From Eukaryota sp. GEM-RC1 (taxonomy: Eukaryota): DNA of 64,000 nucleotides. The notes under the pieces were generated by a model. It was given only the letters and a program-made list of their open reading frames with translations, was not told the DNA's origin and ran no database searches. The stretch covers positions 1,116,001 to 1,180,000 of the forward strand of contig JAUFOQ010000010.1 in assembly GCA_040285855.1 (NCBI GenBank). The letters are read 5' to 3'. Each line of letters starts with the position of its first letter. The first letter of the stretch is position 1. Positions 21,752 to 56,530 of the stretch are shown here, piece after piece. Made by a program: the position numbers and the translations under genes.

Positions 21752-21874
21752 TGTTAGCACAGCAAGTGTTAACACGTGCTCTATTAGTGAACTGTAGTCT
21801 TATTTTACTTAGATTATTCTCTCCCCTTATAAAGGTACCGTCCTTTTTCACTTTCAGCCTTAAACAAGGCATCA
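21752..21874 (+). repeat. 5' LTR (123 bp)
   Basis: TGTTAGCACAGC..AAGGCATCA, repeated at 27829. Confidence 0.95.
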
Positions 21875-21915
21875 ATAGCTATTGGCCGTACAATAAGGCC
21901 TATCTAACCTCAAGT

Positions 21916-23220: not shown

Positions 23221-26200
23221 AGTTCGAGCTAGAACTCCCAAAATTTCTATCAAACACCTTCCTTTTGACAAATCCAAGAACGTCAACGCCCAAAGCCTCT
23301 GCCGAAACAATGGATGATCCTCTCCCAGTGAGTGTTCCGCTGGAATTAAGCTCTTCCGTAAAGGAATTGAGCCCAATAACAGGATCGGGTTTCGACCCTT
23401 TTCTACCAGTGCGAGATACGCCACAATGGGATGGTGACTCCAAAGTTAACGCAGTGGTCAAAGCCGAAGCCAAGTCGAATCAAGGACCTTCCAAGTTACT
23501 ATCTCTCAAAGTCCTTATAAATAACTCTCCTTTCGAAGCACTGATCGACAGCGCTTGTGAAACCTCTTGCTTCTCAGAGGACATCGCGAAAAAAGCCGGA
23601 TGCTCAATTGCCGCCAGCAGATTCAAGTTCACACTAGCAAATGGTACCAACATCCAATCCCCTGGAACCGCTAATTGCATACTGAGCTTTGAATTTGATC
23701 GTATCCTCTCTCCTTTGGTACACCTGAAATGCCAGATCCCAATTATACCAGGAGTAAACCAATTCCTAATTGGATGTGACTTGCTGTCAAGCCTCGGGCT
23801 ACTAAAGAAAACTCCCTGATGATCAACTTGAACAAAGAACATTCAAAGATCACAGGAGCCGAAGCCACCCTGGACCACCTAAGGGTCGACACACCTAGGA
23901 AAGGCCTCGTTCGCTGCAACGTCCACAACTTTAGACGTATCAGAAAGTAGAATCGAGCTTCCCAAAGAAACCGAAGAGAAATTGCTGAAAATTCTAAACA
24001 AACACAAAGACGTGTTCGGAAAACCCCATCCCGAAGGTGTAAAATGTAAACCAATGACTATCCCGTTTTACAACGAAGGCACTACCTGCAAGAAAGCCCC
24101 AAGAAACCTAAACCCTACTAAATTGAGGATCGCCAACGAGATCTTTGATGACCTCATCGAAGACGGATTCGCCGAAGAAACCTCAACTGAGTCTAAATTT
24201 AGCTCTCCAATCGTCTTGGTAATCTACCCTGACGGTAAAAAACCCAGATTAACAGGAGACTACTCAGGAACTGGAGGCGTGAACGCTTCCACCAGGCCGA
24301 TTGAAGCCCATCTACCCAAGATATCAGACGTATCTATCTTCCTCTCAAATGCCAACTTCATCTGCACACTAGACCTCCCGAAAGCATTCTGGCAAGTTCC
24401 GCTAGACCGAGCAGACTACCAGAAAACTACACTAAGCATCCCAGGCCGTTCAATATTCTTCAAAAGAGCCGCCTTCGGACTAAAGAACGTGCCAGCGTTC
24501 TTCCAGAACTTGATGCAAGACATCTTCTCCATGCCTAATGTCTTTATTTACATGGACGATGTAATCATCGCTGCTTCCACAGAAGAAGAACTGCTTTCCA
24601 CGTTAGATGCCATACTAACGAAAGCAGCCGAACATAGAGTCCGCTTCGCCCTCCGAAAATGTGCCTTCCTGACCTCAGAAAGCGCCATAAAGATCCTTGG
24701 AGCAATTTTCCATAAAAAGAAAAGATCTATAGACCCAGACAGGGTCAAATCCATCATCAAGCTGCCTATTCCGTCAACGATAGGCGAGCTGCGCTCCTTT
24801 AACGGCTCCATTAACTATATCCGAGACTGGATACCTCACCTGTCTAATTGCCTCCAACCTTTAACCGCCCTAACCAAAAAAGACGAGTCAGATCGCCGAT
24901 CAGTCAAATCCAAATGGACAAGCTCGCACACGAACTGCATCCTAACCATTAAGTATCTAATTTGTAACGCTTGCGACCTAGCTCTTCCCGACGCAAACGC
25001 AAAAATAGTGATCTCAACAGACGCCACTGACAAAGCCATCAGCGGAGTAGTATGGAAGAAGCTTGACAAGACCCCTACGACCTCTCCACTAGAAGAACAA
25101 AAATTAGAACCAATAAGCTTTCTCTCGAAGACCTTGACGGATAGCCAAATGAACTGGCCAATAATCCAGAAGGAACTCTTCGCGATAATCTGTACCCTGA
25201 ACCAGCCCGCCATGGCCAACTTCTTGATGACACGACAGCTAACGATTTTCTGCGACCACAAGAACATCGTTTACCTGATTAACCAGCCAGAACGAAATCG
25301 GATCGTAACCCGCTGGATCCCCCTACTATCTAACTTCTCTTTCGAAATCATCCACGTCGAAGGTCCAAACAACGTATTCGCCGACCTTCTTTCCCGTCTC
25401 ACGCCCGCTAACCCCAGTTTAGAATCAGAATTACCTGAAACTTCAACATGCTTTAGCTTATTTTCAGTAGAACTCTACGACACCGAATACTACTTTGACG
25501 AAACCCCAACAAAAACCGAATGCCCCAAGTGTGGAGAACAAATGCTCTACCTAACCATGCCCGACCACATACCTTGTGAAGGTCCATACTTCGCATGCAG
25601 AAACTGCCTCAACAAACTAGAACCCCATGAAGTCTATAACGATGATGAACGCAGAGCTCTGCTTCACCTGTATCCGAAAGAAGATACGCCCATCAAAGAT
25701 TACTGTGGCATCTTCCAGCTAGACAAAGCAGGACCTCGGAAATACATCGAACGCAGAGACGACCACATCAAGGAACTATGCTTCCGCTTTGTAAAGCACA
25801 AAGGTCTCATCAGAAGCCTAGAAAAGAAGAACTCTTCACTAAGGAAACTAGTAGAACCTCCTGCCAAAATCAAAATAATAGAACCAGAATCGGAAATTCC
25901 CTGTGGCCATTGCAACCACGGAACCACTGACTTAGAACTATGCGCCAGCCACCATCAAGTAACAACATACCAAGAACGACTGGTCTGCCACAGTTGCAAG
26001 AAATATACAACCGATCAGTTGCTGACCGAAGCCAAAGATAAACTAAAGAAAAGAAAAACTAAAAACTCCCACAAGAAGCTCCTATCTTACGATGGCACAG
26101 GCCCCCTCGTATGCTATTCTTCCACAGATGAATCCCCTTATGATTCAAAAGAATCAGAAAACTCCGACTCTGATACCCCCTTTACCCAAAAATGCTTCGC

Positions 26201-27779
26201 ACTTCGCTGGTCCGGTCAGCCTCCTAAGAAACCAATCAGAATCATTCCAGAATGGTTCAAAGAAGAAATAGAGAAAGCCCGCAAAGAAAAAGAAGTCATC
26301 GACATAAGCTCTGATGAATATGAAGAAGACCCCTTACCTTCAATCACCTACTCAGTAAGAACAGTCGAAACTCAAGACACAGCCTGGCTTGACACCCTGC
26401 GCACCCAACAGCAACTAGAACTAAAAGACTCCAGTGACAGATGCTCCTGGGACGCCGAAGCTCAAATGTTTGTCACCCCTGATAACAAAATCCTCGTTCC
26501 TGAATCTCTAAGAAAAGAGGTAATGTGGAACTTTCACGGATATGCTCACTGTGGTCACCCTGCCTTGTGGCAATGTCTCAAAGACATAAAAAACAGCTGC
26601 TACTCTTGGCCAACATTAGAAACTGCTTTAAAAAATCACATCGACTGTTGCCACTCATGTCAGAAGACAGCCCCAGCCCCCAAGACGAAAACCCAATCAA
26701 CCGGATCCCTGTTTGCAATGAAACCGTTCGGCAATATCCACGCCGACACTATAGGACCCTTGCCCACAGACAACATTGGAAACAGGTACGTGCTAGTATT
26801 CGTAGACGCCTTTACGAGATACACCATCTTATGCCCCTCAGATAAAATCTCCGCCACTAACTCAGCATACTGTCTTATCAACTCGGTATGCGCCAACTTC
26901 GGCATACCCGACATGATCCACTCAGATAATGGACCCGAGTTTTGTAACGCCACCTTTAAAGCATTATGTGCCTTGCTGAACATAACTAACTCCTTTTCGC
27001 TCCCCTCACCACAATCAAAGTAATGGCCTGGTTGAGCGAAGAAATCGAGAAATCAACCAAACCCTGAAGAGATTTCTCCTAGACTTAAACGACTTCCAAA
27101 ACTGGTCGACTCACCTACCTATGGTGCAGTTGATGATCAACAATCAACGCCACTCAGTTACCAGATGCACTCCATGGGAACTAATGTTTGGATCTCCAAT
27201 CGACCCTAGAAAACCTGCATCAGATCTACTGGAAAAACTAACAGCCAAACCAATGCAAGAAACAGGCAACGTGTTTGTCGATGCCCTCGCTGCAAAAACA
27301 ACCTACTTAAAAGAAAAGTGGAAAAAGCAGCCAAGAACCAGCAAAGTCATCTAGACAAACTTAGACCCAACTCAAAACCGGTCAAGAACCCCTTTGTCGT
27401 TGGTGACCTCGTACTTCGAAAGAATGACCAACCTCAGCGCCTGCATGGCTCATGGTTAGGCCCTTTTCAAGTGCTAGAGAGCTCTCCCGACTCCACGAAG
27501 GTTAAAATTCTAAACTTCGTCACAGGTAACGAACTTACAACCTCCAGCTTGCTCCTTCGCCTATTCATGGCCCACTCATCCAACAAGGAATATCTGACCG
27601 CCATCGCTGCTATGGACCAGCAAGAGTCTATACTGGTGAAAGTGCATGACATTGATCACAGATCCAATAGAGCCCATGTAGAATGGATAGACGGCTCTAC
27701 ATCTATGGAACCTCTCGATGAAATCCGCAAGACCACCGCGTGGTCCAAGGCCAAGCACCTCCACGATGTTCCCCTTTGA
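23124..27779 (+). CDS. pol: Pol: protease, RT, RNase H, zinc-ribbon insert, integrase, chromo-like domain; four 1-nt frameshifts in short homopolymers
   Basis: ALIDSAC; LDLPKAFWQ..FGLKN..YMDD; TDAT..KELFAI..DHKN..ADLLSR; H..H..CHSC; HADTIGP..SDNGPEF..NGLVER; WLGPF; VEWIDGSTSMEP. Confidence 0.92.
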
Positions 27780-31912: not shown

Positions 31913-34369
31913 ATATTTGTTTTACCTCCCGTCAGATGAGAGTTGATGAATTAGTTCTAATTGTGGATTTTCTAAGGCAAAATCTGTATATTATACATTT
32001 TGAATGTCATCTCTATCAAATTGACACTGATGAAGACGTGTTTTGTCTTCAAGGAGCAAAAGACTAAAGAGCAAACGTAACTGTTGAAGTAGTCTCATCT
32101 TTGCGGTGTTTTTTGGAGTGTTTCAGTATCAAAAAGTTTACTCTTAAAAAATGTAACTTTACTAAGGAATCCATCACTGCTTTGTGTGATTTAATTAGGT
32201 CTAATAACTCATTGACTTCTGTTGGCTTCAGTGACTTTAAATGCGTCGAATTAACTCAACATGGAACTTACCAAAGGATTGACAATTTCGATTCTTATGA
32301 CGATTATTCTAACTTAATCAGTGCAATTCACTGCAACTCTCGTTTAACTACAGTTACTTTGGGTAATTGTAACATGGGTCTTAAAACTCTACTCACTGTT
32401 TTTGAACTAGTTTCAACCAACAAATTAACTTCGATTATTGATATATCTCCTCATTTAATTGATTTATCTCGTGGGTCTATTTGTTATACCTCCCGTCAGA
32501 TGAGAGTTGATGAATTAGTTCTAATTGTGGATTTTCTAAGGCAAAATCTGTATATTATACATTTTGAATGTCATCTCTATCAAATTGACACTGATGATGA
32601 CGTGTTTTGTCTTCAAGGAGCAGAAGACTACAGAGCAAACGTAACTGTTGAAGTAGTCTCATCTTTGCGGTGTTTTTTGGAGTGTTTCAGTATCAAAAAG
32701 TTTACTCTTAAAAAATGTAACTTTACTAAGGAATCATCACTGCTTTGTGTGATTTAATTAGGTCTAATAACTCATTGACTTCTGTTGGCTTCAGTGACTT
32801 TAAATGCGTCGAATTAACTCAACATGGAACTTACCAAAGGATTGACAATTTCGATTCTTATGACGATTATTCTAACTTAATCAGTGCAATTCACTGCAAC
32901 TCTCGTTTAACTACAGTTACTTTGGGTAATTGTAACATGGGTCTTAAAACTCTACTCACTGTTTTTGAACTAGTTTCAACCAACAAATTAACTTCGATTA
33001 TTGATATATCTCCTCATTTAATTGATTTATCTCGTGGGTCTATTTGTTATACCTCCCGTCAGATGAGAGTTGATGAATTAGTTCTAATTGTGGATTTTCT
33101 AAGGCAAAATCTGTATATTATACATTTTGAATGTCATCTCTATCAAATTGACACTGATGATGACGTGTTTTGTCTTCAAGGAGCAGAAGACTACAGAGCA
33201 AACGTAACTGTTGAAGTAGTCTCATCTTTGCGGTGTTTTTTGGAGTGTTTCAGTATCAAAAAGTTTACTCTTAAAAATGTAACTTTACTAAGGAATCATC
33301 ACTGCTTTGTGTGATTTAATTAGGTCTAATAACTCATTAACTTCTGTTGACTTCAGTGATTTTAATTTCTTCGAACTAACTCCAAAAGGTGTATACGAAA
33401 GGTTTGACAATTTCGATTTTTATGACCATTACTTTAACTTAATCAATGCAATTCAGTGCAACCCTACGTTTAACTGAAGTCACTTTAAGTAATTATAACA
33501 TGGGCATTAAAACTCTACTAACTATCTTTGAACTAGTTTCAACTAACAAATTAACTTCGAATATTGATATATCTCCTCATTTAATTGATTTATCTTGTGG
33601 GTCTATTTGTTATAACCATGATGTTAGTGATGATGAATTACTTCTACTGGTGGATTTTCTAAGGCAAAATCGGGATCTGAAAAGTTTTGATTGTGGTCCC
33701 TATCATATTGAAACTGATGATGACGTGTTTTGTCTTCAAGGAATACGAAACTACAACAAAACAAAAGTATCTGTTGAAGTAGTCTCTGATCTTACGTGTA
33801 ATCTCATTGGGTCTCAAGGTGTCAGAGCGTTGGCAGATGCTTTGAAGGTGAATTCGTCTGTTTCTTGGATCGATCTAGGTAACAACTCAATTGGTAATGA
33901 AGGCGTTTTTGCAATTGCTGAAGCTTTGGAGGTGAATTCGTCTGTATCTACGATTTATCTATCTAACAACTCAATTGGTAATGAAGGCGCTATTGCAATT
34001 GCTGAAGCTTTGAAGGTGAATTCCTCTGTTTCTCATGTCTATCTATATAACAACTCAATTGGTCCTGAAGGCGCTATTGCGATTGCTGAAGCTTTGAAGG
34101 TGAATTCTTCAGTTTCTGGGATCGATCTAGGTAACAACTCAATTGGTCCTGAAGGCGCTATTGCGATTGCTGAAGCTTTGAAGGTGAATTCGTCTGTTAC
34201 TGCTATCGGTCTAAGTAACAACTCAATTGGTAATGAAGGCGCTATTGCAATTGCTGAAGCTTTGAAGGTGAATTCGTCTGTTTCTGCTATCTATCTGCGT
34301 AACAACTCAATCAACAGTCAAACACAACAGACATTAAAATCACTACACAGGAATAGAATGTTTTTTTAA
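31913..34369 (+). pseudogene. 5'-truncated gene: ~3.3 tandem 564-nt (188-aa) units fused to 7 LRRs of a second subfamily
   Basis: Unit landmarks at 31924, 32488, 33051 and ~33614. TAC>TAA stop at 32065-32067 and several 1-nt indels. The C-terminus has SxIxLxNNSIGxEGAIAIAEALKVNSSV repeats. Confidence 0.8.
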
Positions 34370-35404
34370 ACATGTTTTACTTCGATATAAAGATCACATT
34401 TTTCAATCATAAATAATTGCTTATCAAAAACACCATAAGTAGGTGAATGTATAACACACTTCAAAAATGATTGAGTCAATCATTATCCCGAACAAAACTG
34501 AGAAGTGCCTCACCACAAATAATCAAATATCATGGCTATTTAGCAGATGTTGAGATACAGATTTTAACTACTACTCTGGTGAATAACCCACGTCATATTT
34601 ACTCAGCTGGTGCTTTTGCGATTGTTCATACAACACCAGAGATTTATTAGCATCTGAAATAGTGTTTATACTATATCTTTACCCAATATTTGGAATTGCC
34701 AACATTCAATTTCATTATTAACACGACTGTATTGTCTTTTGTGAAGCTTCATTGTCAATATATGATGGTTGAATTATTCTCAGTGATGATTCATTTACGT
34801 GTTTTTGCATTTTTTCAGTAAATCTGACAGTGATTGACAAGGAATTACCAAAACTGTTTTATTGAATATTGCAGTCAAATGCAAAAACACGAATGGCGCG
34901 GTTAAATTTACGAAGAAACAGTGAAACTATTTGGCTTTTTGCAGTTTTTACATAGGCAAGTATAAGCTATGGAAATTAAACAGTATGAATTTGTAATCTT
35001 TGTTAACTAATTGTTGAGAATTTATTCGCAAATTGCAAATATTTTACCAGAAAAAAGAGTGTATAGACTTTTTTAATACTGGTTAGAAGTAATATTATGA
35101 TTTTGTCTTTGTGTCGACAAACAAAATCGGTTTTTGTACATCTTAACTTATGTAACATATACATACTAGGTGACACAGCATAGGATATGTATTCTGTATA
35201 CTATCTGAAAAACACAAAACGTAATTGATAAATTAAAACTAGTCTAGGTTTATCACATACATGTATTATATTAATGACTTCACTTCAGTATGGATCACAT
35301 TTGAATCACAAGTGATGTGATCACAAAAAAGGCCAGTGTGATCCCATGTGTTTGTGATCCACAATTATGATGGTAATTTATGGATTTTAGTTTGTAAGGT
35401 ACAA

Positions 35405-35680
35405 TGTTCTCAATAATTTCCGAATCGAAGTACCTTTGACAGTCGATTCTTTACATCTTCTTCGTAAAAGGGAGTGTCGTTCCAGTCTACATACCCAACA
35501 ACGGCTTCGTTTTGGTTTCCAAACTGGAGAGCAAATCTGTGAAGCATGTTTTTTCACGTCGTTCCTTTCTTGAATACTGTGTGAGGCGATTCCGTCTAAA
35601 CCACTTTTCTTCGTAAATTCCTTCAGTAGTTCTACGATCAAACACACTTCTGAATAGACTGTTTAAAGTAGAAGATTCTC
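35405..35680 (-). pseudogene. Fanzor (eukaryotic TnpB-like) relic, central region
   Basis: Across two frameshifts: YEEKWFRRNRLTQYSRKERRE-KNMLHRFALQFGNQNEAVVGYVDW..KESTVKGTSIRKLLR, matching the Fanzor pattern FYxxxxFRKxxLxxY..FG..GDW..KEPTxGxGxRxL. Confidence 0.7.
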
Positions 35681-36217
35681 AGAACATAATGCAGTATTAT
35701 TGAGGAGGACATTTAAAAGTTGTTCCTGACTAACCTAATACTGATGATGTTCTCAATTAAAAATACTACAGACCCCAATATCACACTAGTGAGATTGGTG
35801 ATTGATCGAAGACTATTAATTGATCATTGAAACTATGAAGACGACTAAGACATAAAACTGTGAGTATTGGGACTTTACCTTTAGTTGAATACATTGTTGA
35901 ACACATGAAGAGATATAAGCTTTGATGGAAATGTCGCAGACATCATTGGGCTTGATAAGTTAAGTTTGTTTCAATTAGTATTGTTGTTTTACAAAATGGA
36001 ACCACAACTTCGGTCCATTTATACTGTAATATTACAATGATCATCAAAGAATAGAGAATCTTAATACGGATTTTTATATGATATTTATTCAAATATTTAT
36101 TAATCCTCCCTGTTCAGGATACCTGTATAAATATATTTAAAGCTAATGCTTTTCATTTAACTCAGGGAAACAAAAAGGTTTATTCAATGTACATCTAAAT
36201 ATATATAAATATATCAA

Positions 36218-38115
36218 TCAATCAACGATTTCGAGCACTTGAGAAGAATGCGAAAGCTTAAAAAAAGGATAATAAACATCATTGACATCATCGATTTTCG
36301 TGCTCATATTGATATATCTAGAATTAATTTCCTGGATGGTGAAAATGTAATTGTCCATGTCAGCAGTTAACTCAAGCAAATCGCCAGGTTTCCAATGTGA
36401 AAACTTCCCGGTGAGTTTTCCTTTGTTACTCTGACACATGTACTTGGAATTAGCCATAACATTTGAATGTGATGAAGAATTGTAGTTCCCAAATGGTACA
36501 ATTCCAACACGCAGAGTGCAATCAGTAGTTCCTTCCCACTTAACTTTCCACTTATAAACTCCTCCTTTCTCCAAGGGTTTATCACCAAGAATGGCACGTT
36601 GTCCTCTACTACCAGTATAGGAAATCTTTTTACCAGAGTTTGATATAACAATGTCAGCATTTTTATACTGAGGAGAAAAAGACATTGAACCTGAAGAGGT
36701 TTCAAGCTCTCTACCTAGTAAATTTCGACTGATTTCTGAAATATGATCACGTGGTACATTCTTGCGGATAACTTTATCCAACCAAATCTCCTTATTATGA
36801 CTTACAGTACCTGTAAAAGTGAGTTTTGACAGCAAATCACAAGAAATATCTAGAGTTTCTGGAACAGTCTCAAAAGAAAAAAGATCAATCAATTTTGATA
36901 AAAGAGTGTGACTAGAATAATCGACTGATACTCTGATGAGGGACAAAAAGTCCTCCTTATTTAGAGCAAATAACTCTAACTTTTCCAACATTTTACTAGT
37001 GAATTCTGGATGATGTTCTCTGATCCAATTAAATTCAGAAAGAACAATAGATTGAGAATGATTAATGAAAGAGTTCAAAAGACTGAGCTTTAACTCCGCA
37101 GAAATATCACCACTGATGGATTCTTTTAATTGGGACATTGAAACTGGAGAATTGTCAGACACTTCAGAGATATTTAAGGTTTCATTTGGATTGGAAGATG
37201 ATTTCGATTTGTTACAATCAATAAGGTCTTTCTTCGTCAACTTTGAAGCTAATTTCAAACTGAAAGAATTTGCATTTTGGACAGCATCATTGAATCCTTC
37301 TTTAATGCTTTGTAATGCAATTAAAGCATTATCAATAAATTTATTGCCTTTATCAGCCAACGTTTCATCAACAATAAGTGACCAATTAACAGTATGACCA
37401 GTGTCAAGTTTAACCATCTTTTGCGACGATTGTCTGATCCAGTTGATTACTAATTCATGGAGAATTGCTTGAGTATTTGTCAAAACTTCGGTAACAACTG
37501 TATGCATCTCATCATTGGCTCTGGAGACTTGCGACGTGGAATTAGACAACAAGACTTGGAACTCCTTGACTTGTCCTTCCAACACTTGTCTAGCTTGATC
37601 AAGTGGAATAAGGTCTTGATTGTGATGTGCATGACCCATATGGATAACACATGAATCACATAGAGATACCGAACACTTAGTACAGAAGTGTTCCAAGGAT
37701 TTAGCGGGATGACGTGGACACTTATGGGAAGATAAGGAAGGTTGTTCATCTAGAGAGAGCACATTGTGCGATCGGAGGGACTTAGGCTTATGGATGGACT
37801 TGGAGCATTCATGGCAAAAGAAGGCGTCGCATTCAGAACAGAACAGTGTTGGAGATGCTTCTTCACACTCAAAGCACACCGCTTGAGCCTTTGAAGACTC
37901 CTTGAAGATTTCGATGACCTCCTGCAAGGCTATGTTGATTCGTAAAGGTGTTTGTGGGATTTTTTCGCGACACACAGGACATGAATCATCTTTTGTTTCA
38001 TCCACACAGCCAAGCATTTATCACGACAGAAGGAATGGTCACAAGAAAGAGTGGTAGGATTTTCCATTAGCTCTTCGCAAACTCGGCATTGTAGTTGAGG
38101 TTGAGATTGACACAT
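36218..38115 (-). CDS. TRIM-like E3 ligase: RING, B-box1, B-box2, coiled coil, SPRY-like domain
   Basis: CRVC..CDHSFC..C..CPVC; CFEC..CSEC..CHEC..H..H; CPRH..FCTKC..CDSC..H..H; C-terminal FSPQYKNADIVISNSGK..YKWKVK..VGIV..YYPFF. One frameshift in the T4 run near 37991-37994. Confidence 0.85.
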
Positions 38116-38139
38116 TATATCAAGGTAAAGAGTGTATTT

Positions 38140-38960
38140 CATTTCAACTTTAAAAATCGTATTAGCGTGGCTAAAATCGAGAGTCCCGCTTTTTGTGCTT
38201 TTTTGAAAGACATTTCCAATGATGAGGCTTCTACTTTGATGACGCGATATCCTCAAAGATATAGTTTCAACTTGAAAGATCATGAATGGATTATCAACAT
38301 TCGTTGGAGGTTGGGTTTATGGACTGTTGGTCTCCTGCAAAAGTATTCTTGTGTGTGTGGTTCTTCTTTAGCCTGTTTTCATCATGTGGTCAACTGTCAT
38401 AAGTTTATTCATTTAAGATCAATTATTCACAACAGTTTATGTGATCAATGTTTAGAATTGTTTAAGAGCAATGGTTTCCATGGGAAAATCGAACCAGTTC
38501 AAAAAGTTTATCTGACTCAATTATGAGAGATATGAGCAGAGGTGATTTGATTGGTCCTTGGTTGTCCGCTCAAGGAATAATTATGGACTTCACTACTGTT
38601 GATGCTTGTAACTCAACTTCTGTTAACAAAATTTTTGACGATAACTATTCAGCTCTTTAAACTGCTGAAAGGAAAAAAATAAATCGTTATGACGAATTAA
38701 TTTTTTGAGATGAATTCTCGCCGACACAATCCTGCTTTTGTTTTTTATCCTTTTGTATTTCTCTTCATGGAATATTTGGTTGCTTCGGTCAACAATTTCT
38801 CACAGATTTTGGCAAATTGAACAAGCAGTATAAAACGAATTTTAATGAAAGTTACTTGCGAGGAAGGTTGTCGTTTTCCCTTTCAAAAGCACTGTTCAGG
38901 TATTTTGATTCGATTGTGAACCGTCTCTTTGCATTGAGACATGAATTTGAGATGATGTAG
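38140..38960 (+). mobile_element. CRE-like non-LTR retrotransposon 3' fragment
   Basis: RWRLGL..CVCG..HVVNC..RSIIHN..KIEP..RGDLIGPWL..DFTTVDAC..FYPF..RGRLSFSL..FRYFDSIV..stop. Confidence 0.8.
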
Positions 38961-39098
38961 AGGTATTTGTATCTCATTTGTTAATATTTATGATACATGT
39001 TGTTTGTATTTGCATTAGTAAATAATAGGCGTTAGAAATATTTTCTACTTAGTCCAAGTTATCATACTAGTACATCTTCCTCAATTACTCTACAAAAT

Positions 39099-39140
39099 CC
39101 GAAGGGAATACAGTATACATCTCTGCATACTCCCCTCCGG
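39099..39140 (-). ncRNA. Candidate Fanzor omegaRNA scaffold hairpin
   Basis: Minus strand CCGGAGGGG-AGTATGCA-GAGA-TGTATACT-GTAT-TCCCTTCGG: two stacked stems with G-U pairs and a GNRA loop, 23 nt after the Fanzor stop. Confidence 0.5.
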
Positions 39141-39163
39141 GGAAAGCTATACTACGTTACTAA

Positions 39164-39650
39164 CTACGAGAGATATTCAGGTCTTCCTCTTCCTTCTCTA
39201 TACCCATCTACTATTCTCAACATATTCAAACACACATGCTGATTACGACTCCAATACTTTCTCTCGCTTGATCCTCTACAATTCTCGCTTCGACACTCAA
39301 GTAGACCATGACAAAGCACTTTTGGGGTTTTTTTCTCTTCTGTAGGGTCTTGGATTCTCGAGCGCCATCCGATCCCTCTTGTTGGTCTGTGATGTTTCAA
39401 ATTCACTTGATCATTTGCCCAACATCACCCATACAGATCAGTAGTTCTTCTCTTCTTCGTCCAAAAGTCGATTCGAGTGACTTCAACAACCAGGACTCTA
39501 CTTTCTGCTTATGGGTGTAGGAATGCATTTTTTGGATGCGCCATAAGGCAGAACATTAAAACCAAGCGGTTGAAGTCACTTGTTTCATTTTGGCCTGGAC
39601 CCAAGCTTCGAGATCAGCAAACGTGGCAGATTTTGGACTTAATCCTGAAT
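39164..39650 (-). pseudogene. Fanzor (eukaryotic TnpB-like) relic, C-terminal half with internal deletion
   Basis: SPKSATFADLEAWVQAK..WF*..WRIQKMHSYTHKQKVE..TFG..ICMGD..HHRPTRGIGWR [gap] LCHGLLECRSENC..YWSRNQHVCLNMLRI..GRGRPEYLS*. Confidence 0.82.
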
Positions 39651-40109
39651 ATTTTTTTCAGCAGTAAAAATAGTTGAATAGTATTGGTCTAAAACTTTGG
39701 TAGCAGAAGTTTAGGTTCAAGAATCAACGGTAGTAAAGTCCATAAGTAATAAATTTTATTGTATGAAATATATGGTTAGCGTAATTAAATGCAATGCAAA
39801 TGCTTTGATACAGTACAGAACGAACAATAACAATGACAATTGTTTACATGGCTTCTTCGTTGTCAATTACCGAGAACTGAATGATTTATTATGGTTATAG
39901 GTGTGGTAATATTGATATTAATTGATGGCCTACAATTCTTGTGTTTTCATATGTGATTACCCCAAATGTTTTGTTCGTTTCCAAGTCCTGATTCGATTTT
40001 TACTCTTTCTGTTGTGAACAAGAAACCTTTTATAATTTGTTTGAGCCAGCAAAATTCATTTGAACCAGCTGGCTTGCAGCTGGAAATAGTTCCATATTGG
40101 GACATCATT

Positions 40110-41759: not shown

Positions 41760-42330
41760 AGTGCTACACCAAATAAGTGATCTGATGGAGGTATTCAGTA
41801 CACGTTCGTGGACCTCCATTCAGTTTTATTAAAGGGACTATTTAGAATGAAAAACGACCATCATTAGATGCTCTTCTTATGTAAGGGAAAACTTCAGTCA
41901 CTTGTGATCATAGTGTTTTTAGTTTGTTGAACAATAACGCTCCTAGGCAGGAGGTATGACTCAAAATAATTTGCGAACATTTTGTTAAACAAAGAGGAGT
42001 GTGACCAGATCAAGCAAAACAACGGTCCTGGAACTCATTGATAGACTACATCGTTAGAACAAATCTATTATGTTGACGAAGATAGGTACAAACAACATTG
42101 AAGTAAATGTTGTTATAGATCTATGTTGTTATGGACGATGGTGCAAATTGTGCTGTACCAGCGGTAGCAAGCCGAGTCTGCCAATAACCTGCTGAAACAG
42201 CGCCTTTTGGTTTCCCAGCCCATGATAAAGGGTGAGATTTACTGCAATGATCCCACCTTTAGTGCTGATGGTAGTAGTGAGGGAAATTGTTTTATGCTCC
42301 GTCGCAAGATTCTTAATCGCTGGAATTTTA
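41760..42330 (-). mobile_element. Possible pogo/DDE-1 transposase relic
   Basis: Fragments TISLTTTISTKG, MFANYFESYLLP and PRTCTEYLHQ occur in the order expected for DDE-1 motifs; heavily decayed. Confidence 0.3.
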
Positions 42331-42872
42331 CCTAATTGTCCCGAGTTCGCTGCTTTTTCAATTGATCTTTGTAATAGTGGAACTCCTGGATTTGTTGCTC
42401 AAATTCCAAAGGTGTATGGATTACATCAATCTGATGAAGCTTGGATGACCAATATGCGTCTTCGCTTGGCTATTTGCCCTGCAAATTTATTAAACTATTC
42501 AATTTGCTCTTGTGGAGCTAATGGTGTTTTTCGTCATTTAATTAATTTTCGTTATTTTATTCATCTACGTGCAGTGATTCATGATGGTTTACGTGATTCT
42601 TGTTACTCCATGTTTACAGCACATGGTTTTCACTCTAAAGTTGAACCAGTTTTGAATCAATAATCTCAAGAGTTGTCATAGGAGCAATAAAAGAAATACA
42701 GTGTTTTACCCCTTTCGTTATCTTACAATGTTCAGCTTTTTGTTCTTCTACTAAGGAGTTTGTAAATTTGTTTAAACAACTAAGTTAAGCATTTGGTACA
42801 AAAATGATCTTCCGATTCTTCAAGTCAATGTATAGATATGTTGATTCCATTTTGACCAAGTTGTTTCGCGGT
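42330..42872 (+). mobile_element. CRE-like non-LTR fragment, internally deleted, running into the LRR gene
   Basis: NMRLRLAI..CSCGANGVFRHLIN.. is nearly identical to the 13.2-13.4 kb copy; then VFYPF..SSTKEFVNLF..SMYRYVDSILTKLF. Confidence 0.78.
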
Positions 42873-44207
42873 AGCTCTGTTACGTCCTCCTCCTCCACAC
42901 ATTCTCCTCCCAATATCTTACACTTTCAACAGTCTGTCCTCGTTTTGATCCACCTCCATTTCCTCAATCATTTGCTAGACCATTCCTCTCACTGGGATCG
43001 TGATGATCCTTGTCTTGATGTCCTTAACTTAAAGAAAGATCTTCCCAAGTTCTTCAAGAAACTTGGCTATATGAGCGACCACTTCTTTGAATCTTCTCTA
43101 CTAGCAACGAAGGTGTTTTTCCAAACAAACACGTTTCATGTCCTTCCAAAGGACGTTATCCCACTCTGTTCATTTGCTTCTTTCTTTGAAGCAGATCCCA
43201 AGTCCATTTTTTTACACGTGGACAAGACCTTTAATGTTGAGGACTGGATTAGTTATTCTCCCATAATTTCAGGATTCAAATTGGAATTAAAAAGCCATAA
43301 TGACTTGCAGTTTGTCAATAACTTGTTTTTGTTCTTTCCACGTGTTACAGAACTTCACTTGCGTATTCGTCGTTCTATTTCTATGGCATCGATCGAATCC
43401 TTGAAGGCAAATACTACAGTTACAAGTATTAGTCTGAGGAACAATTCGATTAATGAAGAGGGTATTGCACATCTAGCAGATTTGTTAAAAGTTAATACTA
43501 CAATTAAAAGTATTGATCTGGGTATGAACTCTCTTGGAGCTGAAAGTGCTAGAGCTCTAGCAGATTTGTTAAAAGTTAATACTACAATTAAAACTATCAA
43601 TCTGTGGAATAACTCTTTTCAAGTTGAAGGTGCTAAAGTTTTGGCACGATCATTGAAAGTTAATAATACACTTACGAGTTGTAATTTGGGTTGGAACAAT
43701 ATTCGAGCTGAAGGTGCCAGAGAATTTGCAAAGACATTGAAGGTTAATAATACAGTTACAAGATTTAGTTTTTACAACAACTCACTTGGGGTTGAAGGTG
43801 TTAGAGCTCTGACTAAGTCGTTAAAAGTCAATAATTCTATTAAAAGTATTGATTTGGGGGTAAACGCGCTTGGAAATGATGGTGCTAGAGCTCTGGCAGA
43901 AGCTTTGATAGTTAATAATACAATTACAAGTATTGCTCTGGAAACGAATTATATTGGAGCTCAAGGTGCTACTGCTTTAGCAGATGTGTTGAAAGTTAAT
44001 ACTGCCGTTACATATATTAATTTGGAGGGTAACTTAATTAGAGATGAAGGTGCTACTGCTTTTGCAGAGGCGTTAAAAGTTAATAGCACAATCAGATGTA
44101 TTAATCTGAGTTACAACTCTATTAAAGATGAAGGTGGTAGAGCTTTGGCAGAAACATTAAAAATTAATACCACAGTTGAAATTGAAGGAATTAATCATCT
44201 TCTTTAG
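42804..44207 (+). CDS. LRR family protein (retroelement-derived N-terminus, core, 9 LRRs)
   Basis: Intact 467-aa ORF; its first 23 aa match the CRE-like ORF tail at ~7075-7135. Confidence 0.88.
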   Translation: MIFRFFKSMYRYVDSILTKLFRGSSVTSSSSTHSPPNILHFQQSVLVLIHLHFLNHLLDHSSHWDRDDPCLDVLNLKKDLPKFFKKLGYMSDHFFESSLLATKVFFQTNTFHVLPKDVIPLCSFASFFEADPKSIFLHVDKTFNVEDWISYSPIISGFKLELKSHNDLQFVNNLFLFFPRVTELHLRIRRSISMASIESLKANTTVTSISLRNNSINEEGIAHLADLLKVNTTIKSIDLGMNSLGAESARALADLLKVNTTIKTINLWNNSFQVEGAKVLARSLKVNNTLTSCNLGWNNIRAEGAREFAKTLKVNNTVTRFSFYNNSLGVEGVRALTKSLKVNNSIKSIDLGVNALGNDGARALAEALIVNNTITSIALETNYIGAQGATALADVLKVNTAVTYINLEGNLIRDEGATAFAEALKVNSTIRCINLSYNSIKDEGGRALAETLKINTTVEIEGINHLL

Positions 44208-44994
44208 TGATCATAGGTTTTTATCGTGTTCACTTAATAAATTGAATTTACTAGTATACGTGTATCTGTAAAACTTTTAGACTACTGAACTTGCTTAATT
44301 GATGAAAGTGGAAAAACAAGTCTAGGTAACAAATTTTACATTTTTTTATAATATTACTAATACACTGACAACATTTATGACCATTGCACAATAGAAGTAT
44401 AAATTTTACCATAACGGTGAGGAAATTAATACACATGTCTAATGGAAAGATATAGACTCCTATCGAATAGAACTGCTGAGTATTTACTCGATTTATCATG
44501 TTACAATTCAAGTAGGTGTATAAACACTGATTCAGTAATTTAAATGTATACCAAATGAATAAGAACATTACTCCTAGTCTAACAATAAATACAAATCTCA
44601 CAAATCATTTTAATATTCCCTTGTGTCTTCTTGCACTTAAGCTAAACAATTCATGTCTCTTACAGTTTTTTCTTTTTTTCCCGGATAAATTCTCCTTTCC
44701 TTCTACTTATGTACTAGTGAAGGGGATATCCAGAACTACTAGAATGATGGCCGTCTATGTACGGACATAGTTTGAATTGATTCAAAAGCTCGCTTTTCTT
44801 CTCATAAGTTGCTAAGTTAGTGAGCCAATCTTCATTGAGTTGGTACATACCGTAAGTTGTACTTTGTAGAGTAGTTGTGTTTATGCAAAAAAACTAACTT
44901 TTGAGGAAGATGTTGATCCAGGATCTACAAATATCATGATAAGCCTATATAACCTCCAAGTTGATGTAGTTCTTTACTTCAACAGTACTATTAT

Positions 44995-45735: not shown

Positions 45736-46145
45736 TGTAAGTATTGTACATACCTTGAAAAACACCTTTATCAACGGGAGTTACACTATTTGTAGGTTCC
45801 GACGACCAAAAGGAAATAAACTTATCTATGCTTCCGTTTAAAAGGCCAAAAAGTTAAAACTATCGTCCTGCAAGACCTGTTTAAACTTCTTACCAAATTT
45901 TGAACACAGTTTTTGAAATAACTTCTGAATTTTTTTTAGCAACAAGCGAAATTTTCACAAAATAGAAAGATTCATTGTGATGACATCACCACGGTGGATA
46001 TATAACAGTGTTTGCTATATTGTGAATCGAAACACATTGAGTGACCGTTGTGTTATACCTCGAAGAAGTGCTAAAAGCGTCAAATGAGACGAATTTTATA
46101 AAGACAAAAATTTATCAAGTTTGTGTGACCATTTTTTTTCGTTTA

Positions 46146-48126
46146 ATGGAACATAATACTGGAGAAAGAACTGCTGTTACATCTTCCTTCAGAGGGTGCG
46201 ATTCTGCTCCTCATTCCTTCAGTTCTGAAGCTGGTGGTCAACCACCCGTTTCCACCCCACGTCCATCCCACGAACAATATCAACTTCCCTCTGAAGCCCC
46301 CTTCACTGCCGAAATCGCCAACGTCCCAGACAGTGCATCAAAAGCTGACATCAAGCAGGCTTTCTCCTCTCTTCCAATTAAAGAAGTTCGATCTCCTAGT
46401 AATATTCCAGGTACGTTCTTTGTCGAATTTCTTGATGTTCAAGGACTCAAGCAATGTTTAGATGAGTACTGGATGTTTAAGATCCATGACCGCTCTATCC
46501 GTACCTATGTAGCCTCTGCTCCTCAGTCTTCTGTTAAACCATTGATTGCTGGCACCTTCTCTTCTAAACCTAATGCTGAACCTATACCACTTGATCTTCT
46601 CCCTTTGACATCCTCATTCCAATCTCCTTCAAGATGCTTACACTCTCAGCAGTCCTTGTTAATTCTCATTAATGTTCACTTGTTGAGAAGTCTCTGTAAG
46701 TCTGCTCTTGAATTGAATCGTTATTATCGTAGTTCTCTTCTTAACTTGAAGAATACTCTTGTTACTTTCTTCAAGAAAGTGGGCTATGTTAGCCATCACT
46801 TCTTTGAATCTGCTCTATTTGCAAGCAAGGTGTTTTTCCAAACAAACACGTTTCAAGTCATTCCTGAAGAACTTCCTCAACTCTGTTCATTTGCTTCTTT
46901 CTTCGGTGCAGATATACAATCTGTTTTCTTACACGTAAAAGGGAACTTTAATGTTGAAGAACATCTGCCTTATTCTAATGTTATTTCAGGATTGGAATTA
47001 GGATTGCAATGCCACAATGACTTGGAGTTTTTGAACAAGTCTTCCTTGTTCTTTCCACGTCTTAAACAGCTTCATGTGAATGTTCTTTCTCCGTTTGCTA
47101 TGATATTTGCAGAATTATTGAAGGAAAATGCTACAGTTACAAGCGTTGATTTGAGGAACAACTCTATTGGAGCTGAAGGTGCAAGAGCTTTGGCAGATGC
47201 GTTAAAAGTTAATACTACAGTTACAAGTCTTGATTTGAGGAACAACTCTATTAGAGCTGAAGGTGCAAGAGCTTTGGCAGATGTGTTAAAAGTTAATACT
47301 GTAGTTACAAGTATTAATATGAGGAGTAACTTAATTCGTGATGAAGGTGCTAGAGCTTTGGCAGATGCGTTAAAAGTTAATCCTAAATATTTAATTATTC
47401 AGCTGCAGGCCAATTCTATTGGTGATGTGGGTGCCAGAGCTTTGGCAGATACGTTAAAAAAATCACACCGCTGTTACAATTCTAAATCTAAGTTACAACT
47501 CTATTGGAAATGATGGTGCTAAAGCTTTGGCAGATGTGTTAAAAGTTACTGTTACACTTACGGGCGTCAATTTATGTTATAATTCTATTGGAGATGAAGG
47601 TGTTAGAGCTTTGGCAGATGCATTAAAAGTTAACACTACAGTTACAAGCGTTAATCTGAGTGCAAACTATCTTGAACCTGAAGGTGCTAGAGCTTTGGCA
47701 GATGCATTAAAAGTTAACACTACAATTACAAGTATTAATCTGAGTTCAAACCGTATTAAAGCTGAAGGTGCTAGAGCTTTAGCAGATGCATTGATAGTTA
47801 ACACTACAATTACAAGTGTTAATATGGGTGACAACATTATTGGAGTTAAAGGTGCTAGAGCTTTAGCAGAAGCGTTAACAGTTAACACTACAGTTACAAC
47901 TGTTAATCTGAGTGCAAACTATCTTGAATCTGAAGGTGCTAGAGCTTTGGCTGAAGCGTTAAAAGTTAACACTACAATTACAAGTATTGATCTGAGCAAG
48001 AACTCTATTGGAAATGAAGGTGCTGGTGCTTTGGCAGAGGCGTCAAAAGTTAATGACACTGTTGAAGTTAATGGAGTATATCTACTTGGAGGTTATATAG
48101 ATTTTCTTGATAATTGTAGATACTAG
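46146..48126 (+). CDS. eIF4B-like RRM, core and 11 LRRs; one frameshift in an A-run
   Basis: LPSEAPFTAEIANVP..FFVEFLD..RSIRTYVA; the ORFs join on removing one A near 47456-47462. Confidence 0.85.
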
Positions 48127-48769: not shown

Positions 48770-51700
48770 ATGTCTACAGACAACAATAATTATTATGTCC
48801 CTTGCGGATCCGCTCCGTGTGACTCACAGCCTCCTCATTCACTAAAGTCTCAAGACCCTACATTGAGTAGGCTGGTTGTAGAGAGTTCCGTTCCTCCAAT
48901 AACTCCCCAAAGATTCTCCGAGGTTGTAGGTTTCGTCCCTGCTCCTTAAATTCAGCAAACATCCCCAGAAGGTTCCGCCCTTCAAAGGATTCCTGTGGTT
49001 GAAGGTTCCGCCCTTCCTTCCCAACCCCAAAGGGGAGTTATCACCATTCGAGATGATAGCTCTCCAGAAGGTCCTGCCCTTCAGAGCTCTCCCTCCCTGG
49101 AAGAGTCCGCTACCCATGATAGGACCATTTCTGAGGATACCACTCCTCCAACGAGTCCTTCCTTCGAGAAAAATTAGAGCTATGTTCAGCGGAGCCCCAA
49201 CTCCGAACAAGCCTTTCCCTACTCTACAATTCTCCTCACTTGCAACTCCCACTCGCAATCAGGAGGGTTTACGCCTTCCACCCAAGTCTTTGCCAAAAGC
49301 CACTTCCAAAAGTGCTCCCATAAAACAGTCTCAGAAGGGTCCCGTTCCCTCATCACTTCCCATAGATGATTTCTTGTCGACTCCACGTGCCCTGGACTCT
49401 GTTCCTCATGTTGGTAAAAAGATCATAGTTTCTCACGTCACTCCCACCGTAGACCCTGACTTAGAAGATCTATGTGATCACGACGTATCTGATGACGAAA
49501 AGTCTGGCCGGACGCCTGCTAAAGACGCGTCTGACCGTTCTCAACCCCCGCCGTTAAGGTCTGACACGGACACGAGAAAGTTCCAAACCCTTCCCATTAT
49601 TCCCGTGTAAGGTGTTTATTCCGGTCAGGTCCTCCAAATCGGCTTCTTCCAAGTTATTCCAGGCCCTTCCTGGACTCTACCAACAAGGGTTAACTGAAGA
49701 GGGACTGAAACTAGCAGACCGTCATATGTTCTCATCAGATCGCCGAATGGTCCATGATTTTCTCCATGGAGTCAAAAACAGTACTGATTACCTCAGAAAC
49801 CGCTATCCGAGATCAGCCGAAGCTGCTAAAAGACCAGGAGACAATTTAATGACGAAGTTATGCCCCTCGAAGGAACATTTACGATCCTTGACGACCGAGG
49901 AAGACCCCATACTATGCTGATGGACCCTAGCAAATTGAAAACCATGATTCCCGTTAATAAATGCTGGGAAACAGTCCAGGAAGTATCAACGGGTCGAATT
50001 TTAGCAAATTCGAATTCGGACAAAACCCATATTCGGCCATGAGATCACAACCCCTCTCCGCTTCCGAAGCTCAGAGTGATCAATCTCGACTGATGAAGTG
50101 GTGATCCAGCCTACTGCATTAAAATACAGAGCTCGAGTGGAATAGGAAGAAGAACTCGCTCGTAGAGCAAATGCAAATCCGAAGTCTAAAGTGAAAGGAA
50201 TTTCCACTTTTCATCAATCACCTTCCGATCAATCAAATCCACTACCTGATGTCCACCAGCTTGGTCTCTCCATGAGTGACCTCAGCACGACAGCAACCTC
50301 CCCCCTCAACTGACATCCTTCCCCCCTGGCTCCGTCAGTTGTGGAATATCCTTCCTCAATGTTCTATAATGTTGTCACATTTCAACAGAAATTCCCAGTC
50401 GACTCTATGAAAATCTCCAAACTTCAGCCTAAGGTGCTTTCGAGTTTGAAACTCTAAGACATCATTGAATTTGCTACAGACTTTCTTCAATGGAGCGTGA
50501 TGGACCCTACCCACAAAACACCGGTAGGGGCTCCATTCGGATGGCCAAGACACTTTTTCGACTTCGATCGAACAGCTGCAGCAAATGCTGACCCTTCTTA
50601 CATCCAACGCTTTGTGAAGTTTGACTTACAGTCCCAACTGTCAATGCAAAAGGAGTGGGATGGTAAGAACCCTCTCACCCTTTGGTTGGCTCTCCTCAAG
50701 CGTACTCAGTTCCCGGACGAAACCACGGCATTGAATGAGCTCAACAAGGTCAACATGAAGTGGTCCATCGCAGACCCCGAAGAGCGATGGAGCGATTTCA
50801 TATCACGTTTACAGAGAATCCAAGCCATCAAGCCGAAGAACAAGCCAATGACTGTTTTGTCAGACAAAGCCATTGTTAAAGCTATTCTATCGAACTTTTT
50901 CATTGTTTCCATCTGGATCGAATGTTGGCCTCTCTACCAGGATTCTGAGGACATCCAAGGATTGATTTTTGAAGTCAAACAACGTTACAACACTTGGTGT
51001 GCGAGATGGCAATCTGCTTCAGCCAATGTCCAGAACGAACAACGAATCACTGAAATCGCTAACCTTAGAGATACGGCAACTTGGGACGACCTCCCCAAAA
51101 CCTGGACTTCCCGTCCTCTCATCCCGGTTCAGTCTAGTGAACCCGGTAAATCTAGAAGATCGGTTTCCAGTTTCAAACCCTCGAAGAAGCCTCGATCAAT
51201 CAATGTCCCGACCCTGAGTGTAGACGCAGTTAACTCCTTTCAGACCAACGAAAGGCCACGAGTACCGTCTCCCAACCACCGAATCGTAGTCGTAGCAAGA
51301 AAAAGTTTCATAAAAAATCTAAATATTTCAATGCACAATCAGTACATATAAACACCCTTGTAGATATATCTGATAACACCACATCATCTATTCAATCAAA
51401 TCCCATTTTGATTGAAACCAATCAATTCTTAAACCCATTGAGCAACATCAGTTCTGCCAATAATAATACGAACTCACAAAACCTGAATTCCATATTCAGC
51501 ATAAGTAGTCAGAACTCACTCAGCTGCAAACTGATGTTTAACAGAATTCGGGTTCAAGGTTTTTGGGACGGTGGAGCAACCATGTCCGTAATCACACAAG
51601 ACCTGGCTATGAAGTGTAACATGACGCCCGTTAACAAAAATGTTCGCTTCACATCCGCAAACAATGTCGAGTCCCGGTCTTTGGATAGCGCCCAGGGCAT

Positions 51701-53629
51701 CTTGACCTTCGATACCAGTAGCATCGCGTACCTGACAGATGTGGATAAGACATTACCAATAATACCTGGATCCAACAAACCATTCTTGGGAATTGATCTA
51801 ATGAAACAGTTAGGACTACTGTCCGAAAACAGACTAGTCATCCGGATTGACAGGACCATCCTGGCCATTGTGAACGATGAGTCCGAGTTCGACTCCGACT
51901 CATACTACATTTCCACAGCCTCTCTATCAATAACGTAGACTTTAATAACCATGTATTTGATTCCGGTTGTACAATACTTTTAGATGATGACACCAGAGCC
52001 GAGAGCTTATTGAACCGGCTTCAGGAGTTTTCCTCAATATTCTCAACAGCTCCTCACAAAGACGGCATCGATTGTCATGGCATGGCATGGCATGGCAATT
52101 GATATCTACAATGAAGAGTCCACTGTGGGACGGAAACCTCGACAGCTCAATCCAATGAAACAGCGGATTGCCGAAGAGATTTTCGATGAACTTGTTCGTC
52201 AGGACTTTGCTGAGTTAACAACTCCTAAACACTTCCTAAAGCATTCTGGCAGCTAAACCTAGCTGAGGACGATGGTGAGAAAACCAGTGTGTCTATACCT
52301 GGGATGTCAATTAACGAGCATGTTTTGGATTGAAAAACGTACCAGCGATTTTTCAAAACATCATGATGGAAATATTCGATGTGGAAGGTGTATTAATTTA
52401 TATAGACGATATAATTGTAGTAGGTGACACTTTCGGACAGTTTATTTCAAGAATAAATCTAGTACTGGAACGAGCAGAACGTTTTAGAGTACGGATTCTT
52501 CCAGCTCCTTCAACATTACCCGAGGTAAGAAGTTTACTTGGCACATTAAATTATGTTCGTGAATGGATTCCAAATTTTTCAAATTTGACTGCCACAATCA
52601 ATGAACTCACTCGTGGAAAACCAATGAAGATTCTATCCCTAGGGATAATGTCGATAACCGAGTTTGCCAATGCTATTTTCGAGGCAGTTTGTAACCTACT
52701 GGCCATTTAAGTAAGTCGTTCGATTCCTCATTTCTCGCAGAGTAGTGGGCTGGTGGAACGACGTCACAGAGACGCTCTGCAGAGCCTACGTCGTCTCCTT
52801 GTGGACTTCAATGATTACGACAATTAAATCAACGTACATTCCAACTGTACAGTTGCAAATCAACGCAACAAAAAGCTCTGGTACTGGGCATACTCCCTAC
52901 GAACTGATGTTCGGTAGCGACTTAAGTCCTAGTGCAAATCCTGATGGTTTACTAGATGCTGTTGAGAAATTGACAAAGAATGTCCCATTTATTGACGACA
53001 TTAAAATGAAACTAGAACGACTAACGAAAAAGAGAGAAGAGGCAGAGATTCGACAATCTTCAATCAAGCTAAAAAAGATTTCTTAACCTAATCAATCATT
53101 TAAGATTGGATATCTTGTGTTGAAAGTCTCCAAAACTAGTAAGCTCCACGGTAATTACTCTGGACCTTTTCTAGTAGTGTCTAATCTGATTACTGGTCAC
53201 GTTATTAAAACTCGCATTCATCAATGTAAGATCTTTCAATCAGATCTACCAGCTGATCATGACATCCATAGAGCAATCGCTTCTGGTGATTCTAAAGAAC
53301 ACATCGTGGTTAAGATCCTGGATAGGTTCAACACACCCAATGCGATGGTGAGTATTGTACGGTCCTCTGGTTTGGTGGTGATACTTTATCAGTTCCCACT
53401 TATGACATCAAGAACACCAAGGCGTACAGTGAATTTGTAAAATTAGAAAATGTAGATTTATTTAAAAGTAGTAACAAGAAACCTAAGCGTACCTCAAGTA
53501 GTACGAGCAATCCTAAAGCAGCCAGCGTCAAGACACCTGTGGCTAAGAGAACAAGGAGCTCGAGAGAAGAGAAGAGGTAGTGTTAGTCAAAGGTATTAGT
53601 ATAGTATCAAGTAGTATAATTTCATAACA
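48770..53629 (+). mobile_element. Decayed Ty3/gypsy element related to the 21.7-27.9 kb element
   Basis: Gag-like ORFs; FWDGGATMSVI protease; KAFWQL..GLKNVPAIFQN..YIDD; deletion from RT into integrase; GLVERRHR, TPYELMFG, YSGPF; purine tract at 53562-53580 followed by TGTTAG. Confidence 0.88.
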
Positions 53630-56348: not shown

Positions 56349-56530
56349 ATCTATGAAGTTAGCTCGTCTTAAAAGTCTTTGCGAATGAGGACATTTATTT
56401 GTTCAAACTGTGAGTTCTGCTCATGAGTTTGCTTACGAGCTTGCTCATGAGATCATGAAAATGTGAAGGGTTATGCCCTTATGCATTTGGAATGAAATTC
56501 ACAGAGGAATTTACCATTGTAACTTACAAC

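Follow-up and report, generated by a model that had tools for sequence, protein, structure and literature searches.

We analyzed a window of 64,000 nucleotides (the whole stretch of DNA under study), which is AT-rich (37% GC) and carries a broken Fanzor1 coding relic on its minus strand, followed by a hairpin and flanked by repeats. The features are as follows.

39652..39749, minus strand: dispersed-repeat fragment adjoining the Fanzor piece, 81% identical over 93 nt to 38578-38670
39424..39648, minus strand: Fanzor1 piece A (helical RuvC insertion to ICMGD), matching profile positions 449-525 of 644 (iE 1.5e-7)
39362..39421, minus strand: Fanzor1 piece B (W...HHRPTRGIGWR), after a frameshift and before a deletion of ~100 nt
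39330..39359, minus strand: Fanzor1 piece C (ENPRPYRREK), in another frame, matching profile positions 550-568 (E 0.039)
39164..39322, minus strand: Fanzor1 piece D (KVLCHGLLEC-x4-C...WSRN...GRGRPEYLS, stop TAG), profile iE 3.6e-16
39099..39140, minus strand: 42-nt two-stem hairpin with a GAGA loop, stable by folding energy, shuffles, and a window scan
39067..39154, minus strand: predicted enclosing stem with ends ACTA/CTAG, then TA (39154-39148 pairs with 39074-39068)
38974..39033, minus strand: host repeat piece, 78% identical over 60 nt to 4252-4305, where there is no Fanzor
~35270..35690 (approximate limits), minus strand: second, more decayed Fanzor1 relic, frameshift-aware profile score 43.9

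An earlier note on this DNA had read a Fanzor relic from a series of motifs. By their coordinates, all of them lie on the minus strand in the order given there: FG at 39465, ICMGD at 39438-39424, PTRGIGWR at 39385-39362, HGLLEC at 39310-39293, WSRN at 39253-39242, LNML at 39229-39218, and GRGRPEYL at 39193-39170, with the stop TAG at 39166-39164. We collected intact relatives by motif-pattern scans of viral, metagenome, and genome contigs and built a Fanzor1 profile from 27 non-redundant intact proteins, out of at least 78 unique ORFs of at least 600 aa. The region 39648-39167 matched the last ~28% of intact Fanzor1 profiles, with its pieces in order; the match to piece A spans 39648-39415, and 39355-39167 aligned to profile positions 576-631 of 644 (iE 1.7e-10). 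The best E value in a reversed-window control was only 3.8. A frameshift-aware profile scan scored the relic at 104.4, compared to 24.1 to 30.8 in 10 null scans.

A PDB search with the frame 39424-39167 (P0001) returned two solved proteins with E < 1, both of them Fanzor1: the Parasitella protein 9cf0 (E 1.2e-7) and the Spizellomyces protein 8gkh (E 1.1e-4). The upstream piece of the relic had no match in the PDB, and Pfam yielded 0 families for the three relic pieces. The profile check proposed earlier succeeds with the Fanzor1 profile. Among the Atlas look-alikes are clusters with a Cas12f1-like TNB domain on 10% of members. Individual pieces also found relatives: piece A was recovered by tblastn with P0052 (E 0.002), the stop in the relic lying opposite a Y, and piece C is identical to P0019 at 8 of 13 positions (pairwise E 2e-4). 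Because the frameshift-aware score lies above the nulls and the profile and PDB matches agree with it, the relic is identified as Fanzor1, and C-terminal Fanzor1 homology across 39648-39167 is established.

The copy is broken in several ways. Homology to Fanzor begins at 39648, and ~450 N-terminal codons, including RuvC-I, are absent. The in-frame TAA that had been reported was located at 39558-39556, where it replaces a conserved Tyr. A reassigned stop codon that would rescue this TAA was considered and rejected: TAA, TAG, and TGA end 5, 3, and 2 of 10 long host ORFs, respectively, and the host thus uses the standard code as far as these 10 ORFs show. After ICMGD there is a frameshift, and a deletion of ~100 nt past PTRGIGWR has cost the gene its RuvC-II Glu, TS motif, and first CxxC. 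The spacing from PxxGxG to HGL is 25 aa in the relic versus a median of 57.5 aa in intact proteins (taken from the 16 of 27 whose motifs the script matched), and alignment with P0021 shows a 34-residue gap at the deletion, both of which bear out the loss of this segment claimed earlier. PTRGIGWR and HGLL can be read in a single frame. That frame conceals two compensating lesions, which the earlier note had missed, since ENPRPYRREK (39359-39330), which matches the NPRP motif of intact relatives, lies out of frame between them and is ended by a second frameshift in an A/C run, with the frame restored before VLCHGLL.

The change of WNRD to WSRN was confirmed in piece D as N>S and D>N, leaving Asn in place of the RuvC-III Asp. 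Across 73 proteins, 22 columns are conserved at 90% or above; the relic keeps 14, has 2 changed, and has lost 6 to deletion, and no substitution other than N>S and D>N falls in the 16 columns that it covers. With 14 of 22 conserved columns kept, point decay is modest, and the distance of the relic from its relatives therefore mostly reflects a distinct family. The metal ligands of SpuFz1 include D383, E541, and D606 (PMC10432273); aligned through P0009, their equivalents in the relic are absent, deleted, and Asn, respectively, and none of the RuvC triad of Asp, Glu, and Asp is intact. Bao and Jurka 2013 (PMC3627910) describe the Fanzor motif as D-X(125,275)-[TS][TS]xx-C4 zinc finger-X(5,50)-RD. 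In the relic the first D is absent, the TS and first CxxC are deleted, only the second Cys pair of the zinc finger is present, and RD reads RN; as judged from the aligned sequence, this pattern shows decay and not a different family. The TAA, the frameshifts, the deletion, and the loss or change of all three RuvC catalytic residues agree that this copy is dead, as had been stated.

To place the relic among Fanzor1 proteins, we searched for relatives in several collections. Word-based protein searches found no close intact copy among called proteins (38 candidates, none scored), which is weak evidence. A scan of viral contigs with P0001 and a phage tblastn gave no match, and one metagenome pattern scan was empty; of 46 loci from a viral pattern scan, 1 matched the profile, and that weakly. 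The profile search returned 53 proteins at E ≤ 1e-5 among 7,993 candidates. The best relatives of P0001 were environmental proteins 30 to 46% identical to it, with 38 to 46% over the C-terminal piece for the closest, and the named relatives were all fungal (Rhizopus, Coemansia, Dichotomocladium, and Gilbertella). The closest full-length relative among the matches listed was P0009, itself a Fanzor1 (E 8.7e-62 to PpFz1).

In a quick tree of 82 rows, based on the C-terminal 260 residues and omitting profile-search proteins shorter than 190 aa, the neighbors of the relic are L308 and the P0009/L247 and L231 clades (SH-aLRT 97), and the giant-virus group lies elsewhere. The tree holds Fanzor1-like proteins only, with no Fanzor2 or TnpB outgroup. 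The relic appears to group with cellular-type Fanzor1s, and this placement is unsure because its branch is long (1.92). Judged from these comparisons, the relic is a member of an unsampled, distinct family of a known kind, Fanzor1. Other loci came up as well. Three Fanzor1 genes (L306, L308, and L312) sit on contigs of bacterial metagenome-assembled genomes; these contigs are likely eukaryotic or viral DNA placed in the wrong bin. Metagenome contigs also hold a Fanzor1 family in multiple, mostly broken copies (22 loci, L169-L237), which is unrelated to the relic and has a sharp common right end ~160 nt past the RP motif. Further, L202 (2573-2679), L231, L218, L209, L184, L282, L195, and L172 represent two uncharacterized Fanzor1 clades with an omegaRNA-like plan, a covarying bulged first stem-loop, and CTAG ends, of which P0009 and P0011 are full-length members.

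The hairpin (39140-39099) begins 23 nt past the stop TAG. The 42-nt, two-stem form with a GAGA loop and mismatches that are G-U pairs had been described before, and every part of that description was found: stems of 9 and 8 bp, a 4-nt bulge, and three G-U pairs, with no other mismatch. On the Fanzor strand the fold reaches −23.5 kcal/mol (z −4.03; 0 of 200 shuffles as good), and on the opposite strand −12.0 kcal/mol (z −0.85). Sliding 56-nt windows that fold at least this well number 5 of 4,568, including its own. As DNA the hairpin folds far more weakly than the Fanzor-strand RNA (−8.8 and −3.4 kcal/mol for the two strands). The earlier note had pointed out that the mismatches are G-U pairs on the Fanzor strand only. 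They are, but the strand asymmetry is less special than it seemed: a strand difference of at least 11 kcal/mol was seen in 26 of the 4,568 windows, and we take the G-U pattern as weak evidence, since three neutral transitions would fall this way 1 time in 8. Selection on the hairpin was considered and is unsupported at the low decay seen here, because 17 pairs stay unbroken at 3 to 5% neutral divergence with a probability of 0.3 to 0.5. No second copy of the hairpin was found within the window, Rfam had no match in its region, and a 21-nt piece of it had no exact match in viral contigs. Two other hairpins in the window, at 11957-12012 and 56085-56140, are more stable on both strands (about −32 and −30 kcal/mol).

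By 39033 the sequence has become host repeat, which confines the right end of the element to 39098-39034. In five sister-clade loci (L202, L231, L218, L209, and L184) the sequence is common up to CTAGTA and then diverges, and elements of the sister clades end at CTAG or CTAA. The relic's tail carries CTAGTA at 39070-39065, at the base of a 7-bp stem predicted to enclose the hairpin (pair probabilities, 0.78 to 1.0), and a candidate right end may thus lie at about 39068-39067 (CTAG, then TA). Only 2 of the 45 CTAGTA sites in the window are closed by such a stem. It is important to note that CTAGTA was chosen as the end after the sister loci had been seen, that 14 of 217 related tails contain it, and that the window has as many as 45 such sites. 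The enclosing stem is not above controls, its stability being reached by 1,030 of 1,500 shuffled and 1,000 of 1,500 random flanks. The hairpin ends 28 nt before CTAG, which is followed by T; the 5′ end of the relic is lost. Structured non-coding sequence is present on the strand of the gene from the stop to the candidate right end.

In Fanzor1 scaffolds as described in PMC11423790, a 7-bp first stem-loop is conserved while the rest varies, and U-U-x-U-C-C stands ahead of the 7-bp stem. The scaffold of SpuFz1 is given in PMC10432273 as the 75 nt up to the right end, with the distal part of stem 2 dispensable; it lies downstream of the stop and ends in ACUA, followed by the guide. The sister scaffolds follow the same plan: UCC precedes a stem capped by a UUAUC loop, and a terminal stem reaches to CTAG. 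Their first stem has 5 of 6 consensus pairs with compensatory changes (10 sequences). This conserved first stem-loop (UCC, 7-bp stem, and UUAUCG-like loop) was unrecognizable in the relic tail; its strict motif occurs in 4 of the 217 related tails and 0 times in the window, and the bulged forms of the sister clades likewise had no counterpart in the tail. The tail does hold UUUCC with 7 of 7 pairs, but with a 28-nt stem where the loop is expected, and 23 sites with UUUCC and 7 of 7 pairs were counted in 128 kb. A covariance model of 10 sister scaffolds gave the tail 8.7 bits (E 9.6), the last of 11 matches in 40 kb. Of 16 held-out loci the model found 1, and it overlooked two with the strict motif, so its silence rules out a close relative only.

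DNA similarity between the tail and its relatives was mostly non-significant. The 22 nt after the stop are identical at 19 of 22 positions to a pre-terminal block of L282, a match equaled by 35 of 3,000 random pieces; the score of L282 is also attained by 8 of 217 tails and by reverse-complement controls. Several further candidates were rejected. Homology of the tail to the stop-proximal words of L247 was equaled by random sequence (130 of 2,000 and 91 of 5,000), homology to those of L230, L282, and L195 was at background, and a match of 12 nt that five loci show at an identical offset was put down to coincidence, being A-rich and from an unrelated family. No target of the putative guide was found in the window beyond chance.

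The best explanation, in which we place moderate confidence, is that this is the broken 3′ quarter of a Fanzor1 gene with the hairpin as a non-working remnant of the right end and guide-RNA scaffold. By analogy with SpuFz1, the parent would have been a DNA transposon with an omegaRNA that started close to the stop, extended to the right end at ~39068-39067, and took its guide from the flank. Deletions would have joined the rear of the gene to a retroelement fragment and taken out the catalytic segment, and the hairpin may correspond to the distal part of the terminal stem, the part that is dispensable in SpuFz1. The position of the hairpin and the sister-like CTAG-TA end make a scaffold or right-end remnant the likelier reading of the hairpin itself, somewhat on the probable side. 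The suggestion that the copy may keep its scaffold is thus likely to hold for a remnant and unlikely to hold for a usable scaffold, the first stem-loop being unrecognizable and the covariance model at background. Because the first stem-loop gripped by the protein is unrecognizable, the copy probably yields neither nuclease nor usable guide, and a working guide from this tail is very unlikely.

A less probable reading, which we nevertheless take seriously, keeps the same dead Fanzor1 and makes the hairpin unrelated to omegaRNA, either as an inverted repeat born of chance or repair or as the subterminal hairpin of a Helitron-like carrier, the true scaffold having been lost. The missing model or sequence match to sister scaffolds speaks for this, as do the 4 other windows of 4,568 that fold equally well and the GAGA-capped two-stem shape, which differs from the UUAUCG-loop form; Helitron1 ends, according to PMC3627910, have a subterminal hairpin and CTRR. 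Against it, a hairpin in the top 0.1% is improbable by chance 23 nt past a Fanzor stop, the Fanzor-strand RNA fold far exceeds the DNA folds given above, and a Helitron-type end and an omegaRNA can coexist. In our searches of the literature we found no paper linking Fanzor, Helitron, and CTAG, nor one on Fanzor in metamonads; novelty is not established thereby in either case.

We consider it quite improbable that the tail is still expressed as a ghost-like omegaRNA and serves, in trans, an intact Fanzor encoded at another place in the genome, with the hairpin as a divergent first stem-loop. The hairpin follows CUUUCC and closes with a 7-bp arm, near the published U-U-x-U-C-C start, 0 of its 17 pairs are broken, and ghost omegaRNAs function with SpuFz1 (PMC10432273). 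Yet the tail lacks the conserved loop, and its UUUCC is predicted to pair with sequence further downstream. No clear second stem comes after the hairpin, the unbroken pairs are expected anyway at the divergence considered above, and no close intact protein was found among called genes (weak evidence, as noted). In its boldest form, to which we give equally little credence, this would be a live ghost-type omegaRNA in which a second stem lengthens the first stem-loop, working with an intact Fanzor1 from a family less than 50% identical to any sampled protein, in a unicellular host with at least two Fanzor1 families. That the Fanzor piece was cargo of the adjoining retroelement-like repeat is hardly credible: the repeat end (39652) and Fanzor start (39648) abut on the same strand and Fanzor1c has been reported close to LINEs (PMC10530073), but the junction truncates both partners, the outcome expected of a deletion, and behind the repeat's remaining copies in the window there is no Fanzor sequence.

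Returning to the dead copy with a scaffold or right-end remnant, we compared it with known systems. The best solved match to the C-terminal piece is PpFz1 of Parasitella parasitica (PDB 9cf0; Xu et al. 2024, PMC11423790), which shares KVLCHGLLxC, a WNRD-type motif, LN, and RP with the relic. PpFz1 as described there is intact, with 849 aa, while the relic is broken, with ~180 codons, and the short PpFz1 scaffold has a UUAUCG loop in its first stem-loop that is absent in the relic. SpuFz1 and the Spu-1 and ghost elements of Spizellomyces punctatus (PDB 8gkh; Saito et al. 2023, PMC10432273), the source of the second protein match, resemble the relic in a structured tail from the stop to the element end and in the candidate ACUA end. 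Unlike Spu elements, the relic has no terminal inverted repeats found, is a single copy in the window, and has no recognizable first stem-loop. The environmental Fanzor1 clades (P0009/P0011/L247/L282 and L202/L231) fall in the same tree group and have CTAG or CTAA ends; they differ in that they give no significant RNA-model match to the relic, whose branch is long. Fanzor1 is known in fungi, protists, algae, animals, and giant viruses (PMC10432273, PMC10530073, PMC3627910), and the relic is an ordinary fossil of this known kind, with no new mechanism. Should this genome or that of a relative contain an intact member, that protein would represent a new RNA-guided nuclease, compact and with a target motif of its own.

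The repeat at 39652-39749 ends 3 nt before Fanzor homology starts, is also related to 4156-4225, and is not part of the Fanzor element. Its translation resembles the endonuclease region found at the C-terminus of non-LTR retroelements, presumably CRE/REL-like ones from the motifs. No Pfam or PDB match named this flanking repeat, and its sister piece at 38095-38523 had no Pfam match; its Atlas look-alikes are eukaryotic proteins, one cluster carrying zf-RVT on 28% of members, with recognition under threshold. The pair 38578-38670 and 39656-39748, tried as terminal inverted repeats, was rejected as two copies of this dispersed coding repeat. No terminal inverted repeats were found around the gene, which says little of the parent, as the left end is lost. 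Fragments of retroelement-like sequence are dispersed through the window at 4085-4225, 38095-38946, 42229-42663, and 60308-60811 on the plus strand and at 7192-7470, 12886-13482, and 39652-39749 on the minus strand; they resemble non-LTR retroelements in their Cys/His knuckle and D...D endonuclease motifs. The fragment at 60308 has a weak RVT_1 match (E 4.8e-6, under the cut-off). On the other side of the relic, 38974-39033 and 4252-4305 form a short AT-rich repeat, both copies of which lie downstream of a retroelement-like fragment on the same strand. The Fanzor element may have inserted into a copy of this AT-rich repeat.

The second relic lies ~4 kb from the first, and its frameshift-aware score again exceeds the 24.1 to 30.8 of the 10 null scans. 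In it, two neighboring segments cover profile positions 476-525 collinearly, and a degenerate HxGL-C-x4-C comes next. With two relics inside the window, the proposed presence of Fanzor in this eukaryote is supported. The second relic has no significant DNA similarity to the first and is for that reason likely older or of a separate family; a similarity between the tails of the two was rejected, as 1,172 of 3,000 random pieces were as good. This eukaryote is thus a past host of Fanzor1 transposons, probably of two families, one of them distant from all sampled proteins.

The window also holds an LTR retrotransposon at 21736-27779 (plus strand) with RT, RNase H, and integrase domains in 23883-27023, and ORFs suggest a second, broken copy at 50458-53086 (plus strand). 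Among the host genes are a B-box gene, a CCDC81-like gene, a Ras-family fragment, and many leucine-rich-repeat genes. The latter form an expanded family with 28-residue (84-nt) repeats, at 7864-9258, 13884-15398, 17037-18724, 33443-34369, 42789-44207, 46041-48126, 53640-55217, and 56459-59224, which includes a recent inverted duplicate (17037-18645 and 42805-44450, 87%).
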